Notes under the pieces: model-generated | What the model was told of the DNA's origin: nothing | Seen by the model: the letters and a program-made list of their open reading frames with translations, nothing else | Database searches by the model: none | Shown: positions 1,722 through 25,424 of the stretch, in pieces | How the letters are laid out: the number at the start of each line of letters is the position of its first letter | Numbering within the stretch: the stretch's first letter is position 1 | NCBI GenBank assembly: GCA_944380405.1 | Contig: CALWHO010000181.1 | Span: forward strand, 74-64,073 | Direction: 5' to 3' | Length of the DNA: 64,000 bases | Origin: an uncultured Lachnospiraceae bacterium | GTDB lineage: Bacteria > Bacillota > Clostridia > Lachnospirales > Anaerotignaceae | Translations under genes and position numbers: made by a program

Positions 1722-1844
1722 ATATATTCCTCCTTTATTTTTTATTATAAAACGATACCATACAATATATTTAATATCTATATAAGTGACAAAAAACAGA
1801 TGAGTTGTATGGGTACAATATTTAGAATTGTAATAATACAATTT

Positions 1845-2145
1845 CGTCAAAGGCTCATTTCATTCAAGCCTTTGACGAGAAGACAGAAGTATAAAGCACA
1901 TGGTCAGCACTTTTCTTCGAAAAGTCAGCTTCGCTGACCCGCACATCTTTGTGGGTGCCAAGTTCCATCGGCTAAAAAGCCTTGAAACTCACTGTCGGCA
2001 TTTTCCTTTGGAAAACGGCTTTGCCGTCTTAGTTCGTCAGGTGCTTTGCTTTTACTCGTCGGAAGTGAATTCCGCCTGCGGATTCCATTTGGGAAACTCT
2101 TCGTTTCCCAAACCTTTCCGCTAACTAAATGTGATAAAAAATATT
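1845..2145 (+). repeat. E-family structured intergenic repeat, copy E1
   Basis: E1 is homologous to 4316-4511 (+) and to 23429-23711 (-). The shared right module is ctcgtcggaagtgaattccgcctgcggatt...gggaaactcttcgtttccc...cctttccgc. The shared left hairpin is tcaaaggc-tcatttcattcaa-gcctttga. Confidence 0.8.
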
Positions 2146-2149
2146 TTAT

Positions 2150-2182
2150 GTACAATAAAAAAGAAGAACATTTCTGTTCTCC
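2150..2182 (-). terminator. intrinsic terminator of the flavin reductase-like gene
   Basis: On the minus strand the hairpin agaaca-gaaa-tgttct is followed by a T-rich run. Confidence 0.6.
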
Positions 2183-2192
2183 TTTTTGATTA

Positions 2193-2690
2193 TTATTTTT
2201 CTAAAACATCAATTATTTCTGCTACATACATCATGTGGTAGTCTTTATTTGGGTACCATTTATCTATAATTGATTTATCAATGAAGTTTTCTTCTTTAAT
2301 TTCCTGTGAATACATTTTTTTGCAAATAAGAACGAGTCTGCCTTCTTCAAAATAAGGTGTGTTTTCGTCATGGGCAACTGTAAGACCTGTTTTTGCTATT
2401 TTGTCCTCGTCACGACCTGAAACTGTACCAAAGTAAGACATAGTTTCTCTGTAGCTTTCAGGAAGTATTGTTATTGAAAATGTATCGCCATTATCAACAA
2501 ATTCCTTTGTGTATCTCTGTGGACGAATACCTACTACAACGGCATTTTTGCCCCACATAACACCGCCAAAGCCCCATGAAGCTGTCATGGCGTTAACTTT
2601 GCCGTCTTTTTGGGCTGCTACAAGCATCCAGTCTTTGCCTATAAGCTTAAAAATGTTGTCGTTAATGTTTTCTGGTAATATTTTTTTCAT
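2193..2690 (-). CDS. flavin reductase-like (FMN-binding split-barrel) domain protein
   Basis: The 165 aa protein reads MKKILPEN...NAMTASWGFGGVMWGKNAVVVGIRPQRYT, which is typical of the flavin reductase family. Confidence 0.8.
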   Translation of the reverse strand: MKKILPENINDNIFKLIGKDWMLVAAQKDGKVNAMTASWGFGGVMWGKNAVVVGIRPQRYTKEFVDNGDTFSITILPESYRETMSYFGTVSGRDEDKIAKTGLTVAHDENTPYFEEGRLVLICKKMYSQEIKEENFIDKSIIDKWYPNKDYHMMYVAEIIDVLEK

Positions 2691-4290: not shown

Positions 4291-4313
4291 GGGTGCAGAA
4301 AGCTTCTGCACCT
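4291..4313 (+). terminator. hairpin HP-L (ggtgcagaa-agc-ttctgcacc), proximal copy of a duplicated hairpin
   Basis: A perfect 9 bp stem lies 33 nt after the scfA stop and is followed only by tatttta. It is a near-duplicate of the hairpin at 4514-4533. Confidence 0.5.
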
Positions 4314-4315
4314 AT

Positions 4316-4511
4316 TTTAGGCAAAATCAGGATTTTGCCTAGGTTACTGGCGGTATAAAAAGAAAGTTCCTGCGGCAATATCTGCCTTGAAACTTTCTTT
4401 TTTCCTCGACGGAAGTCAATTCCGTCTGCGGATTACAATAAGGAACCTCTTTGGTTCCCTATACCTTCCAGCTGTTTTATTTTTTTAAAATTATATTTGT
4501 TTTGAAGGTAT
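4316..4511 (+). repeat. E-family structured intergenic repeat, copy E2 (short variant)
   Basis: E2 shares with E1 and E3 the motif ggtataaaa, the stem agaaagtt/aactttct, and the module cctcgacggaagtcaattccgtctgcggatt...ggaacc-tcttt-ggttcc...ccttcc. Confidence 0.75.
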
Positions 4512-4513
4512 GG

Positions 4514-4544
4514 GGTGCAGATGTATCTGCACCTGAATTTTTTT
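4514..4544 (+). terminator. hairpin HP-R (ggtgcagat-gt-atctgcacc) plus T-run; attenuator/terminator between scfA and scfB
   Basis: A perfect 9 bp stem is followed by tgaattttttt and lies 37 nt upstream of the scfB ATG. Confidence 0.55.
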
Positions 4545-14246: not shown

Positions 14247-14591
14247 TTACTCTTCTTCTGATGAAATAGATATTATTTCAAGGCAGGAATGAATTATTTT
14301 TTCCAACTGCTGGTGATATTTTGGGTCAATGTTATAGAAATGTTCGTTAAGGTCTATTTTGTCGATATTTTTCCAAAGTATTTTATCGGAGGATATACCA
14401 AGAACTTCGCATATTTTCTTTAATGTTGTAAGAGAGATACCTGCATAGCCTCTTTCAACGTCATAAAGAAAATTAATGCTCACATCTATTAATTCTGAAA
14501 GCTGTTCTCTTGTGTAGCCATTTTTTTCTCTGTAAAATCGAATATTTTGACCAACAAGAACGTTGATTTCTTTTTTCTCTTTTGCTCGCAT
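14247..14591 (-). CDS. XRE-family HTH transcriptional regulator, paralogue 1 (114 aa)
   Basis: The N-terminal HTH_XRE region reads VGQNIRFYREKNGYTREQLSELIDVS...ISLTTLKKICEVLGIS. The start is an ATG after GAGG. Confidence 0.8.
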   Translation of the reverse strand: MRAKEKKEINVLVGQNIRFYREKNGYTREQLSELIDVSINFLYDVERGYAGISLTTLKKICEVLGISSDKILWKNIDKIDLNEHFYNIDPKYHQQLEKIIHSCLEIISISSEEE

Positions 14592-14626
14592 AAAAACCTC
14601 AAATTAAAAAATATTTATATATTTGA

Positions 14627-14995
14627 TTAATTTCTCGCTTTTTTGTTATAATCATTTTTAGATGCAAGGGATATTATTTCTAATTGTTTTTGTATAAGTT
14701 CGTCTATAACACCCATATACTCATCTGGCAAATGGGATAAACGCTCAGAAATATCAATTTTATTATCAGTGTTTTTCCAAAGTAAACGGTCAGCAGAAAT
14801 GCCTAAAACTTCACACAACTTTTTTAATGTAGTTATAGAAATTCCAGTGCTGCCTGTTTCTGCATCGTATAAAAAGCGAGGACTAACTTCAATTAATTCG
14901 GCTAATTTTTCTCTGCTATAGCCTAATTTATCCCTATGAAGTCTTATATTTTCACCAACAATAATGTTTATTTCCTTTTTTTCTTTTGATAGCAA
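14627..14995 (-). CDS. XRE-family HTH transcriptional regulator, paralogue 2 (122 aa)
   Basis: It has the same architecture and is visibly similar to paralogue 1 across the HTH and C-terminal region. The start codon is TTG, after GAAAGG. Confidence 0.75.
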   Translation of the reverse strand: MLSKEKKEINIIVGENIRLHRDKLGYSREKLAELIEVSPRFLYDAETGSTGISITTLKKLCEVLGISADRLLWKNTDNKIDISERLSHLPDEYMGVIDELIQKQLEIISLASKNDYNKKARN

Positions 14996-15017
14996 TAAAA
15001 TCTACCTTTCATTTAAT

Positions 15018-15368
15018 TTATAGTTTTTTATTTAATAAAAGTGAAATCATTTCAAGTTGAGTTGTTATAATTTTTTCTAAATATGGGTGGTATTTTGGGT
15101 CAATATGTGCAATCATATCTTGTAGAGTTGTTGGTTGGTTTTGGTTATTCCAAAGTATATTATCGGCAGAAACACCCAGAACTTCGCATATTTTCTTTAA
15201 TGTTGTAAGAGAAATACCAACAAAGCCTAATTCACAATCGGCTAAAAAACGAGGGCTTACACCTATTAATTCAGATAATTTTTCTCTATTTAAGCCTGCT
15301 TTTTCTCTATAAAATCTAATGTTTTGTCCTACTGTAATATTGATTTCTTTTTTATCTTTAGCTCTCAA
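15018..15368 (-). CDS. XRE-family HTH transcriptional regulator, paralogue 3 (116 aa)
   Basis: I trimmed the ORF to the TTG at 15368, eight nt after GGAGGTGG. This gives (M)RAKDKKEINITVG, colinear with paralogue 1 (MRAKEKKEINVLVG). Confidence 0.7.
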   Translation of the reverse strand: MRAKDKKEINITVGQNIRFYREKAGLNREKLSELIGVSPRFLADCELGFVGISLTTLKKICEVLGVSADNILWNNQNQPTTLQDMIAHIDPKYHPYLEKIITTQLEMISLLLNKKL

Positions 15369-15425
15369 TAATACCACCTCCACTATATTGTCGTTTACTA
15401 CTACAATTTTATGTGTGGGTAATAG

Positions 15426-15454
15426 TTGAAAAAATGGAGTTTTAACAGTATAAT
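15426..15454 (+). promoter_or_regulatory. sigma-A promoter of the SLOG/DUF1273 gene
   Basis: TTGAAA, a 17 nt spacer and TATAAT. The listed ORF start at 15426 is the TTG of the -35 box itself. Confidence 0.55.
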
Positions 15455-15497
15455 TAAACTTGTAATACACGAATTATTATATAAAGAAGGTGTTCTT

Positions 15498-15983
15498 TTG
15501 TATTCTAAAGAAAATACAGTTTGTTTTACAGGTCACAGAAAAATAAGAAAGTCCGACAAGGATTTATATACAAAAATTTATAATGTTGTTGAAAGTCTTA
15601 TATTACAGGGGTTTTTATGCTTTTGTGCAGGTGGTGCAAGAGGTTTTGACACTATGGCAGCAGAGGCAGTTTTAAGTCTTAGGGAAAAGTACGCTGATAT
15701 AAAATTAGTGCTGGTGCTGCCCTTTTTGGAGCAGTATAAAAAAGAAGAGTCTTGGACTGATGAAGAAATAGATAGATTTATTAATTTGACCAAAAAAGCA
15801 GACAGCGTTGTTTATTTGCAAAGAGATTATTCAAAAAGCTGTTATTATAAACGAAATCAGCTTCTTGTGGAGTATTCTTCCGTTTGTGTTTGCTACAAAA
15901 GCAGAAAAAGCGGGGGAACGGCATATACTGTGGAACTGGCTCAAAAAGAGGGATTAAAAATTATAAATTTAATAGAGAAGTAA
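15498..15983 (+). CDS. SLOG-superfamily DUF1273 (YpsA-like) protein
   Basis: The sequence VCFTGHRK...GGARGFDTMAAEAVL...GGTAYTV is characteristic of DUF1273. I prefer the TTG at 15498, which follows GAAGGTG and lies downstream of the promoter. Confidence 0.7.
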   Translation: MYSKENTVCFTGHRKIRKSDKDLYTKIYNVVESLILQGFLCFCAGGARGFDTMAAEAVLSLREKYADIKLVLVLPFLEQYKKEESWTDEEIDRFINLTKKADSVVYLQRDYSKSCYYKRNQLLVEYSSVCVCYKSRKSGGTAYTVELAQKEGLKIINLIEK

Positions 15984-16016
15984 AAAAGAGAGGGCATAAG
16001 TCCTCTTTTTTTTTAT
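15984..16016 (+). terminator. intrinsic terminator after the SLOG gene
   Basis: The stem agagg/cctct has G-U and A-U extensions and is followed by a T run of about 10. Confidence 0.6.
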
Positions 16017-16021
16017 TTCTT

Positions 16022-16226
16022 GGCAAGGATTATAAATACTTTATTTTAAAAAGTATTTGCGAGAGGGCCCATCTCAGAGTTGCGAAGCCCGAAGTGCCCT
16101 CTCGTGCTCTCCCATCTTGGGCGACGCTTTTCGTATGTGTACGGCTCTTGCCATTTACAAAATAATATTTAAATTCTTTTTTACAAAAAAATAAACCCAT
16201 CAGCCATGAACAACAAAAGGCGTGGC
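16022..16226. repeat. F2 structured repeat, unit A
   Basis: The unit reads ggcaagNaYtataaat...aaaagtatttgcgagagggccc...gccctctcg...cttgggcgacgcttttcgtatgtgtacggctcttgcc...cccatcagccatgaacaacaaaaggcgtggc. It is nearly identical to unit C. Confidence 0.85.
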
Positions 16227-16270
16227 TTACTTCTTTTCTCTCTTACCCTTGAAAAAAGTTCTTATTTCTC

Positions 16271-16600
16271 GGTAAGAACTATAAATTCTATATTTTACAA
16301 AAGTATTTGCGAGAGGGCCCATCAATGCACCCGACGAACAAGGGCGGCAAAGCCGGTTTGCGAAGCAAAATGCTGACAGGGAGCCCCGAAGCCCTGACCC
16401 CCTCTCGCGCTCTCCCATCTTGGGCGACGCTTTTCGTATGTGTACGGCTCTTGCCCTTTACAAAATAAATTCTTTTTAACTTTACTTTAAATAAAAAATA
16501 ACCCACTATCCACGAAATACAAAAGGCGTGGCCATAGGGTTGGGGTTCAAGGGGAAGGGACACGGCCTTCGCAACTACGAGTTCTCCCTTCCCCTTGGAG
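16271..16600. repeat. F2 structured repeat, unit B, with inserted sub-module M and a G-rich hairpin extension
   Basis: It has the same framework as units A and C. The apex of the first hairpin is replaced by cccgacgaacaagggcggcaaagccggtttgcgaagcaaaatgctgacaggg. It is followed by the 12 bp stem aaggggaaggga/tcccttcccctt (16549-16596). Confidence 0.85.
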
Positions 16601-16707
16601 AAAACTTTATTGCCATTTATAAAAGCCAACTTCTCGTCGGCTTCTTCCTAAAGGAAGAAGGTCGGCGACCGTAAGCCAAATCTCTCCAACAAAACTCTCC
16701 ACTCCTC

Positions 16708-16980
16708 GGCAAGTACTATAAATCCTCTGTTTTACAAAAGTATTTGCGAGAGGGCCCATCTCAGAGTTGCGAAGCCCGAAGTGCCCTCTCGCGCTCTCCC
16801 ATCTTGGGCGACGCTTTTCGTATGTGTACGGCTCTTGCCCTTTACAAAATAATATTTAAATTCTTGTTTACAAAAAAATAAACCCATCAGCCATGAACAA
16901 CAAAAGGCGTGGCAAACAGGTTGGGTTTTAAGGGGAAAGAGCACAGCCTTCGCATACTTCGAGCGTCCCTTCCCCTTGAA
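16708..16980. repeat. F2 structured repeat, unit C, with the G-rich hairpin extension
   Basis: 16729-16913 is nearly identical to unit A. The extension at 16930-16977 is homologous to 16549-16596. Confidence 0.85.
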
Positions 16981-17007
16981 ATAAACTCTTTTCAAATTTC
17001 CATTAAT

Positions 17008-17048
17008 AAAAACATATCCCACCAGCCATGAATAACAAAAGGCGTGGC
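17008..17048. repeat. F2 partial unit D (terminal hairpin only)
   Basis: cccaccagccatgaataacaaaaggcgtggc matches the 3' end of units A-C. Confidence 0.7.
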
Positions 17049-17051
17049 AAA

Positions 17052-17080
17052 TAAAAAGCTGCCCCTCTGGACAGCCTTTC
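17052..17080 (-). terminator. intrinsic terminator of the dnaI-like gene
   Basis: On the minus strand the hairpin gctgtcc-aga-gggcagc is followed by TTTTT. Confidence 0.55.
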
Positions 17081-17082
17081 TT

Positions 17083-18066
17083 TTATCCTCTGAATTTTTT
17101 AAGTATCCTTATGTCGCTTCCTACAAACTTAAGTATCCTGTACTCACCCATAATACGGCTTGATACTCTTTCGCCGTATTTTGCCGCCAAATCCTCCAGT
17201 GTAAAATTGGTGGATATTATAACAGGCTTTTTGTCTATGCTTCTTGTGTTAATGATGTTGAAAAGTGCAGAAACAGTAAATGAAGTTGAAAACTCTGTTC
17301 CAAGGTCGTCTATAATAAGTAAGTCAGCAGAAGCGATGTCCTCCATGCAGTCGGAAAACTCTTTTTCCTCATCACCGAAACGCTCTTTTTCTAATTCCTT
17401 AAAAAGCTGTGACGCTGTTACATACATAACAGTAAAGCCTTTTTTAACAACTTCTTTTGCTATGGCACCACAAAGATATGTCTTGCCAAGACCAGGGTTG
17501 CCGTAAAAAAGCAGATTGCCGCTGTCTTTGCCCATGTTTTGAGCAAACTTTAAGCATGTGTTATATATTTTTTCTATATTTTTTCTATATGACATGCCAA
17601 AATCATTTTTTTCGTCACTGTAGTAAGAAAAATCGAAATTTTCAAATGTTTCGTACTTTCTTCCTACACCTGACATGTTGTATGCCGTATCCATAAGAAG
17701 CTGTGCAAAGCAGCTGCACATTTTGCCGTTAACAAAGCCAGTATCAGAGCATTTTTCACATTCGTACTTAATTTTAAGTTCGTCTTCGTCAATGTTATTT
17801 TCTTTTAAAAGCTCTTTTTTCCTGTTAATAAGAATGTCTTTCTCCTGCTGAAACGCCTCATTAGCGTTTTGGCTGTTGTCAGGTGAAAGAGCAGCTTTTT
17901 TTGCAGCCTCTATGCCAAGTATGTTTATTTTTCTGTCTATGTCTTCAATTTCAGGCACTTTTTTATAAACCTCGTCACGCCTTTGGTGCATCTGCCTTTG
18001 GGCGTTCATTCTTTTCTGGTCCATAAGTGAAAGTATTTTTTTGTATATAGCCAAACGACTTTCCAT
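17083..18066 (-). CDS. DnaI/DnaC-type helicase-loader ATPase
   Basis: It has an N-terminal Zn-ribbon-like CEKCSDTGF..GKMCSC, Walker A (GNPGLGKT) and Walker B (LLIIDDLG). Its ATG overlaps the stop of the upstream DnaD-domain gene (TAATG). Confidence 0.8.
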   Translation of the reverse strand: MESRLAIYKKILSLMDQKRMNAQRQMHQRRDEVYKKVPEIEDIDRKINILGIEAAKKAALSPDNSQNANEAFQQEKDILINRKKELLKENNIDEDELKIKYECEKCSDTGFVNGKMCSCFAQLLMDTAYNMSGVGRKYETFENFDFSYYSDEKNDFGMSYRKNIEKIYNTCLKFAQNMGKDSGNLLFYGNPGLGKTYLCGAIAKEVVKKGFTVMYVTASQLFKELEKERFGDEEKEFSDCMEDIASADLLIIDDLGTEFSTSFTVSALFNIINTRSIDKKPVIISTNFTLEDLAAKYGERVSSRIMGEYRILKFVGSDIRILKKFRG

Positions 18067-21720: not shown

Positions 21721-22776
21721 TTATATCACCTCTATAAAAGTATTTCCTGCCGCTTTTTTAAGCCTGTTCATAATAGCGGCACCTTCTCCCTGTTCCTGAA
21801 AAACTTCAGAATATACTATATCTATACCAAGGAAATCAAACTTTCTTAATATCTTAAATAAATTAGAGCCTATTTCCTCCTGGTCATCATATTTTCCAAG
21901 AGAAAGCACTGCATCAGCAGTATAAAACATAGCATTTTCATCTGTTGTCATTACTCCAACCTTAAAGCCAGCTTTTTGCTTTTCACATACAAAGTTATTT
22001 ATGCTTTCAATAACATTGTCTTTGCTGCCCTTTACAAGTATAACCTTTGCATTTGGTGAGTAATGAGTGTATTTCATTCCAGGTGCTTTAGGTGCTGCAT
22101 CAGTATTGCCCATACCGGAAATAGCAGGGTCAACATCTACATTTCCAACAACCTCTTCAAGCATTTCCTTTGTAATAGCTCCTGGTCTAAGTATTGTAGG
22201 AACGCCTGTACTTACATCTATTATAGTAGATTCAAGGCCAAAATGTGCAGCCCCTCCATCTATAATCATGTCTATTTTGCCGTCCATATCAAAAAGCACA
22301 TGGCTAGCCCTTGTAGGGCTTGGCTTACCTGAAATGTTGGCACTTGGTGCAGCAACAGGCACACCAGCAGCATTTATAAGGCTTCTTGCAATTTTGTTTG
22401 AAGGAAACCTTACAGCTACAGTATTAAATTTTCCTGTTACAGAATCAGGCACAATACTTTTCTTTTTAAATATAATTGTTATAGGTCCAGGCCAAAAAGC
22501 ATCCATAATCTTTTGGGCAGACTCTGGGATTTCTTCAGCAATAATATTAAGCTGCTCTCTTTCGCCTATATGAAGTATAAGAGGATTATCCGAAGGACGA
22601 CCCTTTGCTTCATATATTTTTCTGCAAGCCTCACCGTCAAGACCATTTGCTCCAAGACCATAGACTGTTTCTGTAGGAAAAGCTACCAACCCTCCTTTTT
22701 TGAGTATGTCGGCAGCTTCCTCAATAATTTTCAGATCAATATTTTCACTGTCAATAGTTTTAAATTTGGTTATCAT
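21721..22776 (-). CDS. tsaC: L-threonylcarbamoyladenylate synthase (Sua5/YwlC-type TsaC)
   Basis: The 351 aa protein has a YrdC domain ([12 protein letters not shown]...KGRP.DNPLI) plus a Sua5 C-terminal domain. Confidence 0.85.
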
Positions 22777-23273
22777 AAATTAGCTCCGCAGCATTTCTTA
22801 TACTTCTTGCCGCTTCCGCATGGGCATGGATCGTTTCTGCCGATTTTTTCGCCTTTTACGATAGTACGGCTGTTTCTCTGTTCTTTGTAAAGTTTATCTC
22901 TTTCAGCTTTTGTAAATACGTTATCCCACTGTGGGAGGTTATAAAGGTGGTCGGCTTTGTATTCAACCATCTTTTTGTAAAGCTTATCAAAAGCTATTTC
23001 AAGGTTAACTTCTGTATCTTCCTCAAGGCTGTTTACATCGTAAGGTGTTGGAAGAACTTCGTTTATACCATCAATAAAAGCTACTGCATATTCAACAGTC
23101 ATGTTAAATCTTTCAGCTATTTCTTTAACTGTACCGCTGATATTAGTTACTTTTTCTTCAAGTATATATTCATAAATTTTCTGTTCTGCTGGAAGGTATA
23201 AATCCCAAACAGCATCAACACTTCTTCCTTCTTTAGTAAAAGCTTTTGTAAGCCACTGTTCATAAATGCTCAT
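22773..23273 (-). CDS. SEC-C motif (SecA-type zinc-binding tail) domain protein
   Basis: The 166 aa protein ends in [19 protein letters not shown]. Confidence 0.75.
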
Positions 23274-23395: not shown

Positions 23396-23427
23396 AAAAA
23401 GAACCTCCACTTTTGGAGGTTCTTTTT
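23396..23427 (-). terminator. distal copy of the duplicated pyrG terminator hairpin, with full U-tract
   Basis: aaaaagaacctcc-actttt-ggaggttcttttt. On the minus strand the stem is followed by TTTTT. Confidence 0.65.
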
Positions 23428-23428
23428 A

Positions 23429-23711
23429 AAGCAGTAGAAAAAATAGTTTTCACACCATTTTACTAATGCGGAAAGGCTTGGGAAACGAAGAGTTTCCCAA
23501 ATTTAATCCGCAGTAAAGAACCCGACGAACAAGGGCAGCACAGCTGTTTTGCGTAAGCAAAATTCCGACGGAATTCACTTCCGACGAGGAAAAACGACAA
23601 GTTTCTAGGCATAAATGCCTATGAAACTTACGTTTTATACCTATGTCTCTCGGCAAAGACTTGAATGTAATGAGTCTTTGCCGAAGGGTAGTGGACATCG
23701 TCCACACCCTC
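23429..23711 (-). repeat. E-family structured intergenic repeat, copy E3 (carries sub-module M)
   Basis: The reverse complement aligns with E1 and E2 at three points: the hairpin gcaaagac-tcattacattcaa-gtctttgc, the motif ggtataaaa, and the module cctcgtcggaagtgaattccgtc[insert]tgcggatt...gggaaactcttcgtttccc..cctttccgc. Confidence 0.8.
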
Positions 23712-23739
23712 AAAGAACCTCCGCTTTGGGAGGTTCTTT
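23712..23739 (-). terminator. proximal copy of the duplicated pyrG terminator hairpin, with weak U-tract
   Basis: aaagaacctcc-gctttg-ggaggttcttt starts 2 nt after the pyrG stop. It is identical to 23398-23425 at 26 of 28 positions. Confidence 0.55.
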
Positions 23740-23741
23740 AA

Positions 23742-25424
<1,683 letters not shown>

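Follow-up and report, generated by a model that had tools for sequence, protein, structure and literature searches.

The DNA analysed here, referred to as the window, is a 64,000-nucleotide stretch of contig CALWHO010000181.1 from an uncultured Lachnospiraceae bacterium, and the subject of this study is E3, a 286-nt insertion located directly downstream of the CTP synthase gene pyrG, between two copies of the pyrG terminator hairpin. The pyrG gene was recognized from the open reading frame (ORF) list and a homologue search; its product carries the Pfam domains CTP_synth_N (PF06418) and GATase (PF00117), and its nearest named relative was the PyrG of Anaerotignum faecicola (85% identity), a genus placed in the Lachnospirales, Clostridia. 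The locus is organized as follows:

23742..25352, minus strand: pyrG (CTP synthase), whose terminator is the insertion target
23712-23739, minus strand: proximal hairpin copy, AAAGAACCTCC-GCTTTG-GGAGGTTCTTT, with an 11-bp stem and a 6-nt loop, directly after the pyrG stop
23426-23711, minus strand: E3, a non-autonomous element of 286 nt that resembles MITEs (miniature transposable elements with inverted repeats), with its 5' end at 23711 and its 3' end at 23426
23398-23425, minus strand: distal hairpin copy, AAAGAACCTCC-ACTTTT-GGAGGTTCTTT, with the original TTTTT tract and downstream flank still in place
23301-23272: promoter-like site before the SEC-C gene
22773..23273, minus strand: gene for a SEC-C motif protein, the next one downstream of pyrG, starting 125 nt beyond the distal hairpin

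An earlier reading made from the sequence only had placed E3 between two copies of the pyrG terminator hairpin, and this description held. The two copies were identical at 26 of 28 positions, with both mismatches inside the 6-nt loop, and a pattern search with the pair of 11-nt arms recovered exactly two sites in the 64 kb, with no third one, and none in 100 dinucleotide-preserving shuffles. The asymmetry of the T-tracts that had been described was also found: read along the pyrG strand, TTT and then GAGGGTG, where E3 begins, come after the proximal stem, whereas TTTTT comes after the distal one. The tail behind the proximal hairpin now reads UUUGAGGG, UUUUUAAGG having been replaced, while the distal copy retains the original tail (proximal, TTTGAGGG; distal, TTTTTAAGG). 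A simple terminator scan of the minus strand called neither hairpin, since their A/T runs form part of the stem.

Empty and occupied alleles at pyrG and scfA/scfB

Related genomes had been proposed as the place to look for an unoccupied pyrG site with a single hairpin, and such a site was found in three contigs of a closely related strain (L014, L015 and L016), which have one hairpin, not two, and encode a PyrG identical to that of the occupied strain at 528 of 536 positions. Their single hairpin reads TAATTAAAGAACCTCC-CAAAGT-GGAGGTTCTTTTTAAGG (also given with the right arm GGAGGTTCTTTTTAAGGAATG). Three other contigs (L001, L002 and L013) were occupied, with a PyrG identical to that of the window and E3 between the same two hairpins. 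The spacer downstream of pyrG measured 151 nt in the empty alleles versus 468 nt in the occupied ones, and the flanks of the empty allele aligned base for base on both sides (alignment A2), the difference being exactly E3 plus one 28-nt hairpin. The breakpoints between empty and occupied alleles coincided with the ends of the element family described below, the proximal hairpin aligned with the lone hairpin of the empty allele, and the neighboring SEC-C gene was the same in all the relatives compared. E3 is an insertion with exact boundaries. A more distant relative, with 93% PyrG identity, had neither the hairpin nor the element, and was uninformative regarding the target because both are absent there.

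Read-through of the proximal hairpin is expected, because this upstream copy lost the T-tract that the downstream copy kept; judging from these tails, transcription of pyrG probably continues across E3 and stops at the distal hairpin, and the 3' extension of about 290 nt proposed earlier is a reasonable reading. Weakened proximal termination combined with working distal termination would add about 310 nt of structured 3' untranslated region (UTR) to pyrG.

Two further copies of the family, E1 and E2, were located in the window:

4291-4313: proximal hairpin of E2, GGGTGCAGA-AAGCT-TCTGCACCT
4314-4512, plus strand: E2, between copies of the scfA terminator/attenuator hairpin (4291..4534 in total), with an architecture like that of E3 and without the 5' palindrome
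4513-4534: distal hairpin of E2, GGGTGCAGA-TGTA-TCTGCACCT
1843..2153, plus strand: E1, a 5'-truncated family copy with no flanking duplication

The parallel that had been drawn with E2 at scfA/scfB was confirmed, since the flanking hairpins form a pair of a different sequence, for which 0 occurrences are expected by chance, and empty alleles were recovered in six contigs. At this locus scfA encodes the 46-aa SCIFF peptide, and its spacer to scfB measured 322 nt in the occupied contigs versus 101 nt in the six empty ones, all of which carry the single hairpin GGGTGCAGA-AAGCT-TCTGCACCT (alignment A4). Both empty sites, at pyrG and at scfA/scfB, were obtained from sample ERZ27251022. The 3' end of E1 abuts the terminator hairpin of a flavin-reductase gene (2193..2690, minus strand), and no empty site was found for this copy, the sole other contig found being occupied.

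The loop of the scfA hairpin reads AAGCT in the proximal copy and in the six empty alleles (L187, L190-L192, L194 and L195) and TGTA, a complex loop change, in the distal copy. Both the stems and the entire 361-nt spacer were identical in 4/4 occupied alleles, while the flanking genes differ by 1-3% between strains.

Anatomy of E3 and of the element family

Blastn searches within the window tied E3 to E1 and E2, for a total of three copies, and the nhmmer model of the family matched E3. Its 286 nt fold into a chain of hairpins (z = -13.8 versus shuffles), and all of the contents assigned to it by the sequence-only reading, namely a GC-rich hairpin, the family hairpins with their core, and module M, were located:

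23685..23711, minus strand: 5' terminal palindrome GAGGGTGTGGACGATGTCCACTACCCT, a diverged version of the family palindrome CAGGGTGTCGAAAAAGTCGACACCCT
23650..23684, minus strand: second hairpin, TCGGCAAAGACTC...GAGTCTTTGCCGA, with compensatory changes relative to other copies
23595..23632, minus strand: third hairpin, variable
23569..23588, minus strand: conserved core CTCGTCGGAAGTGAATTCCG, the pattern used for fishing the family
23515..23568, minus strand: module M, a 54-nt secondary insertion in E3, without a flanking repeat
23468..23513, minus strand: fourth hairpin, CTGCGGATT..GGGAAAC-TCTTC-GTTTCCC..CCTTTCCGC
23426..23467, minus strand: 3' tail terminating in TTTTTTCTACTGCTTTAA, a degenerate version of the family right end TTTTTTGACAGTCTG

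The GC-rich hairpin, GTGGAC-GAT-GTCCAC, forms the core of the 5' palindrome. Since both this core and the 3' end CTACTGCTTTAA have drifted from the consensus, E3 is, to judge from these differences, an old and somewhat degenerate copy of the canonical family. An 87-aa ORF spanning E3 (23450..23713) was dropped as a coding candidate, its frame being unconserved across copies.

The family was fished from a species-representative genome set with the core pattern CTCGWCGGAAGTSAATTCCG, which yielded 49 stretches. The genomes bearing the core included Anaerotignum lactatifermentans DSM 14214, Anaerotignum sp. MSJ-24, Chakrabartyella piscis BP5G and Clostridia bacterium UC5.1-1D10, as well as several metagenome-assembled genomes of Anaerotignum, Clostridia and Oscillospiraceae. 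Copies with perfect duplications occur in the complete genomes of the first three. A metagenome scan with the 5' palindrome gave at least 120 loci, and the family figures that include metagenomes refer to copies among the matches listed. Canonical elements are 208-230 nt long, and longer copies hold extra modules in a hairpin loop. Each starts with (C/G)AGGGTGTCGAAAAAGTCGACACCCT, a perfect palindrome, continues with three more conserved hairpins and the core, and finishes with TTTTTTGACAGTCT(G). The fixed ends of the family can be written as 5' (C)AGGGTGTCGAAAAAGTCGACACCCT ... TTTTTTGAC(A/G)GTCT(G) 3', or in short form as CAGGGTGTCG.../...GACAGTCTG; they make up an imperfect terminal inverted repeat, in which 11-12 of 15-16 nt match between CAGGGTGTCGAAAAA and the reverse complement of TTTTTTGAC(A/G)GTCTG.

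A second family of about 150 nt (one member had 192 nt), with an interior unrelated to the canonical one, starts with CAGGGTGTCGAAAAAGTCGACACCCTG and ends with TTTTTTGACGGTCTG. Its eleven matches represented about ten sites, and all but one carried perfect hairpin duplications of 19-27 nt. Because the same two ends enclose two unrelated interiors, the ends are the recognized part, and sharing a single pair of ends in this way is the hallmark of non-autonomous elements using one transposase. That both families have identical ends and perfect duplications suggests a transposase that is active at present.

A direct repeat spanning the element, with a score of at least 18, was detected in 16 of the 50 evaluable core-anchored copies and at none of 156 random positions of the same loci (0/156; control maximum, 15). 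With the nhmmer model, 62 of 128 copies anchored at the 5' end in genomes and metagenomes, among the matches listed, showed a flanking repeat score of at least 14; the corresponding control had a 95th percentile of 12 and one outlier at 34.5. Merging orthologous loci left about 34 distinct duplicated-palindrome sites among the matches listed, and the palindrome was different at each one of them, measuring 20-38 nt and abutting the element termini within 0-2 nt. The stems were perfect over 7-14 bp at the clearer sites, falling to 4-6 bp at some by a strict perfect-stem measure, with loops of 3-11 nt. The majority of these palindromes have A- and/or T-runs, and at 27 of the 34 sites the end of an ORF with 90 codons or more lies within 200 nt on one side or the other. 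The duplicated palindromes are, on this sequence evidence, terminator-like hairpins, and their recurrence with a different palindrome at about 34 independent sites bore out the proposal of a mechanism that targets terminator hairpins and duplicates them.

Copies of 150-290 nt were non-coding: the stop-free stretches varied in strand and frame, the indels between subfamilies were not multiples of three, and no reading frame was conserved across copies. No match to the element was obtained in Rfam at gathering or permissive thresholds with the window, E3 with its flanks, a canonical copy or the short-family loci. The traits of a MITE that were seen include a non-coding length below 500 bp, a target-site duplication, multiple copies, and an occupancy that varies between close strains; in many recent copies the duplications are perfect, and their length is unusual in that it equals the whole palindrome.

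Module M is composed of three small hairpins, and similar pieces occur at 16324-16377 and 1994-2047. It was polymorphic, being present in the E3 of the window and of L013 and missing from that of L001 and L002, all four with identical PyrG; in L013 a second M-like piece follows module M at the contig end (alignments A1 and A2). Judged by eye, an M-like layout of three hairpins lies in the opposite orientation within the hairpin loop of the longer copies L042, L047, L051 and L056. Positions 16000-17060 form a 1.05-kb non-coding mosaic of modules from other repeat families, which has only module M in common with E3. This mosaic is flanked by a YpsA/DprA-like gene (15426..15983, plus strand) and a dnaI-like gene (17083..18066, minus strand), its units are 95-100% identical with spacings of 303-687 nt, and the hairpin CCAYGAA..AAAAGGCGTGG appears in it four times (16204, 16510, 16891 and 17026). 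Elsewhere in the window, at 14247-15470 on the minus strand, three consecutive paralogous genes for HTH_3 (Cro/C1-type) regulators of 114, 122 and 150 aa constitute a 231-nt repeat family with 68-76% identity.

Two family copies had unusual surroundings. In L170 (11400-11900) the copy adjoins a partial duplicate of the 3' end of a tRNA together with its terminator hairpin, so that the hairpin is present three times within 470 nt. In L020 (900-1100) the copy is 5'-truncated, and ahead of it lies its own 3' end in inverted form (AAGACTGTCAAAATA ... TATTTTGACAGTCTT), which provides this copy with a perfect terminal inverted repeat.

Insertion mechanism and competing explanations

Very probably, Anaerotignum-like gut Clostridia harbor a non-autonomous DNA transposon (a MITE) that duplicates the hairpins that it targets, and E3 is a copy of it. 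A transposase supplied in trans would act at both feet of a DNA palindrome, in practice a Rho-independent terminator, and join the ends of the element there to opposite strands. The new insert would then have the palindrome as a single-stranded gap on each side, and gap repair would fill both, doubling the whole hairpin. The simplest target geometry would be an extruded cruciform, the two feet of which are adjacent, so that a short stagger of the usual kind would come to span the whole palindrome after reabsorption of the cruciform. The preferred candidate for the enzyme, put forward tentatively and as a possibility rather than a probability, is a DDE transposase like that of IS30 or IS1630.

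The length of the duplication tracked that of the palindrome within about 2 nt across a twofold range (20-38 bp), which argues that the target is read as structure or symmetry, the two joining points being set by the palindrome and not by a constant B-DNA stagger. E3 itself is co-oriented with pyrG, as had been noted, both lying on the minus strand, but this did not extend to the family: by A/T-tract asymmetry 7 sites were sense and 7 antisense, and by neighboring ORFs 10 were sense-only, 4 antisense-only and 13 convergent. A rule of co-orientation between element and terminator was dropped as unsupported by these splits, and the unbiased orientation suggests that the target is read symmetrically, as double-stranded DNA. 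In the internal stems of the elements, 18 pairs showed compensatory change and no strand asymmetry of G-T versus A-C was detected (7 vs 8 cells); this pattern marks no single transcribed strand and fits a double-stranded, symmetric target. Folding specific to RNA was discarded as an explanation of the stems in the absence of such asymmetry.

Fresh insertions have perfect duplications, loop included, indicating that the loop differences seen at E3 and E2 arose after insertion; for the same reason, the idea that these differences reflect the chemistry of insertion was rejected. Among 16 non-identical hairpin pairs, differences fell in 16/105 unpaired columns versus 21/346 of the others (Fisher p = 0.007), suggesting either that stems are constrained or that loops mutate faster.

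Several observations weigh against the transposon interpretation. About half of the copies were without a detectable duplication, and only the proximal hairpin was present at L026 and L063 and only the distal one at L040. In the orthologous pair L018 (4850-5069) and L030, a full canonical element lies within a hairpin (AGGCACAGAA...TTCTGTGCCT) with a direct repeat of only 6 bp, AGAATT, which constitutes an exception to whole-hairpin duplication. The 25-nt 5' palindrome of the family, AGGGTGTCGA-N3-5-TCGACACCCT, was also found alone, with no flanking duplication around such stand-alone copies, and the terminal inverted repeat is short and imperfect. A partner transposase was sought in about 1.3 Mb of loci around 180 copies, sampled as small neighborhoods, and none was found there, in a viral-contig scan or in a plasmid BLAST with the element. 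A tblastn search with E. coli InsI, the IS30 transposase, against all the loci and the window gave nothing better than E = 0.9, and hairpin direct repeats 400-6000 nt apart were restricted to element-internal ones. Three other searches of the fetched loci were likewise negative: pairs of left and right ends 0.6-5 kb apart corresponded only to neighboring small elements, with no insertion the size of an insertion sequence (IS) in the 1.3 Mb; repeated ORF-sized segments in an all-against-all comparison were only orthologous loci; and identical hairpin direct repeats 100-6000 nt apart had only element-sized spacings or were element-internal hairpins. Because the sampled neighborhoods were small, a partner located elsewhere in the genomes would have been missed.

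The stand-alone palindrome of L077 (8456-8480) is the sole hairpin between convergent NhaC-like and ABC-F genes, and those of L113, L153, L091, L102 and L137 abut unrelated hairpins or other repeated interiors.

The alternative that survived best, which we regard as quite unlikely, keeps the same insertion outcome and assigns it to a structure-specific integrase outside the IS30 family, such as a Cas1-like, casposase-type enzyme or a member of an uncharacterised family, acting at the feet of a hairpin or cruciform. The failure to find an IS30-like gene near the copies favors it, as does the formal resemblance of the repeat-insert-repeat layout to CRISPR spacer integration. The ends of the element also read CAG...CTG and not TG...CA, the latter being typical of many DDE elements, and at the 5' end there is a perfect palindrome, which is found by itself as well. 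On the other side, the limited reach of the sampled neighborhoods applies here as well; in the available extracts of the published reports, precedent for this exact outcome came only from IS30-family elements; and no cas1-like gene turned up, although no search aimed at cas1 was made. A related proposal, in which a non-IS30 enzyme reads DNA shape at cruciform feet and the stand-alone 25-nt AGGGTGTCGA-N-TCGACACCCT is its putative binding site, seems rather unlikely; if true, it would represent structure-guided integration that delivers cargo at any terminator and rebuilds the terminator on each side.

It is very unlikely that the element is primarily a structured RNA, that is, a 3'-UTR or small-RNA module with a host function such as mRNA stabilization or regulation of pyrG or scfB, whose hairpin pair was selected for processing or termination. 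The very strong folding, the compensatory changes in eighteen base pairs and the constraint on stems are all compatible with it, and in the scfA-scfB spacer the hairpin of E2 could set the ratio of peptide to maturase. However, no wobble asymmetry marks one transcribed strand, the elements occur in both orientations relative to genes, their presence or absence varies among near-identical strains, and an unrelated interior has the same ends. Rfam gave no match either, and a curated structured RNA family was discarded since no covariance model matched at its gathering score. A secondary host function of the elements could exist alongside transposition.

Strand-specific insertion through single-stranded DNA or RNA, modelled on group IIC introns or on IS200/IS605-type palindrome-associated transposable elements (PATEs), is highly improbable. 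Terminator hairpins are known targets of group IIC introns, and the element is rich in hairpins and has asymmetric ends; nevertheless, those mechanisms leave no target duplication, whereas here the whole hairpin is duplicated, and the orientation was unbiased. A group IIC intron, a six-domain ribozyme of at least about 600 nt that produces no duplication, was rejected because, at 150-290 nt, the element falls far short of the size of a group II intron, and because Rfam revealed no intron domain. A PATE derived from IS200/IS605 was likewise rejected, given the duplication, the lack of a common target motif and the unbiased orientation.

Finally, that the two pyrG hairpins are unrelated terminators of two transcription units, or products of local tandem duplication or slippage, is scarcely credible: A- and T-runs flank the distal hairpin on either side, so that it could work in both directions, but no plus-strand gene ends nearby, the architecture recurs at about 34 unrelated sites, and the empty alleles, with exactly one hairpin and breakpoints at the family ends, refute this reading.

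Comparison with known systems

The elements share with Correia/NEMIS, RUP, BOX, bcr1 and ERIC the condition of being small, non-coding, multicopy, hairpin-rich, intergenic, modular and strain-variable, traits of bacterial MITEs and mosaic repeats that have been reviewed previously (PMC3184786, PMC10969869). Classical MITEs differ in having short duplications of fixed length (TA, 5 bp), whereas here the whole target palindrome is duplicated and the length varies. IS30 of E. coli prefers nearly palindromic hot spots and moves by a copy-out-paste-in route via joined ends, with 2-bp duplications (PMC9333248); in contrast with the present elements, for which any palindrome serves, it recognizes a sequence consensus.

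Group IIC introns and the insertion sequences IS1397, ISPpu9 and ISPpu10, which target repetitive extragenic palindromic (REP) sequences, land at terminator or REP stem-loops (PMC1525189; PMC12288879; 2026 bioRxiv preprint). Unlike the elements described here, they insert beside the hairpin or in its loop with a repeat of none or 2-4 bp, and are strand- or sequence-specific. In Cas1-Cas2 spacer integration and in casposons, staggered joining at the borders of an often palindromic repeat followed by gap repair duplicates the repeat. The target of CRISPR spacer integration is one fixed repeat beside the leader, whereas any terminator-like palindrome is used here and no cas genes are implicated.

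The closest likeness was with the IS30-family element IS1630 of Mycoplasma fermentans, whose duplicated repeats reportedly derive from terminators of neighboring genes, a finding attributed to Calcutt et al. 1999. The available extracts of the published accounts give IS1630 duplications of 19-26 bp (PMC2853133), or of 16, 23, 25 and 26 bp (PMC3317919), and describe ISMhom-1 of M. hominis as behaving likewise (PMC7648426). As in those elements, an inverted repeat of variable length and sequence is duplicated, with 28 bp at pyrG, 22-23 bp at scfA and 20-38 bp across the approximately 34 sites. Both mycoplasma elements are autonomous, 1.2-1.4 kb long, with 27-bp terminal inverted repeats and their own transposase, whereas the present family occurs in Clostridia and comprises elements of 150-290 nt with no gene and imperfect terminal repeats of about 15 nt. 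Terminal inverted repeats of about 20-30 bp are a trait of the IS30 family, and in their place we found the 15-nt imperfect repeats and a perfect 25-nt 5' palindrome. By this analogy the family appears to work like IS1630, and its membership in the IS30 family is a candidate assignment.

Previously known in a few insertion sequences of mycoplasmas, the behavior now extends to transposase-less elements that are abundant in human and animal gut Clostridia, and at two housekeeping loci, pyrG and scfA/scfB, clean natural alleles from before and after insertion show the duplication of a whole target hairpin. Since the landing site is rebuilt on both sides, the elements can spread through gene ends at little cost, and would thereby lengthen the 3' UTR of the upstream gene by 150-290 nt of structured sequence, a point of relevance for annotating terminators, predicting operons and understanding mRNA stability in these genomes. 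The availability of dozens of independent sites allows the equality of duplication and palindrome, within 2 nt, to be stated numerically. Duplication of a whole inverted repeat is rare but not new in kind, being known from the IS30-family element IS1630; the novelty here lies in the Clostridial families, which are non-autonomous, and in the quantitative rule equating duplication and palindrome.

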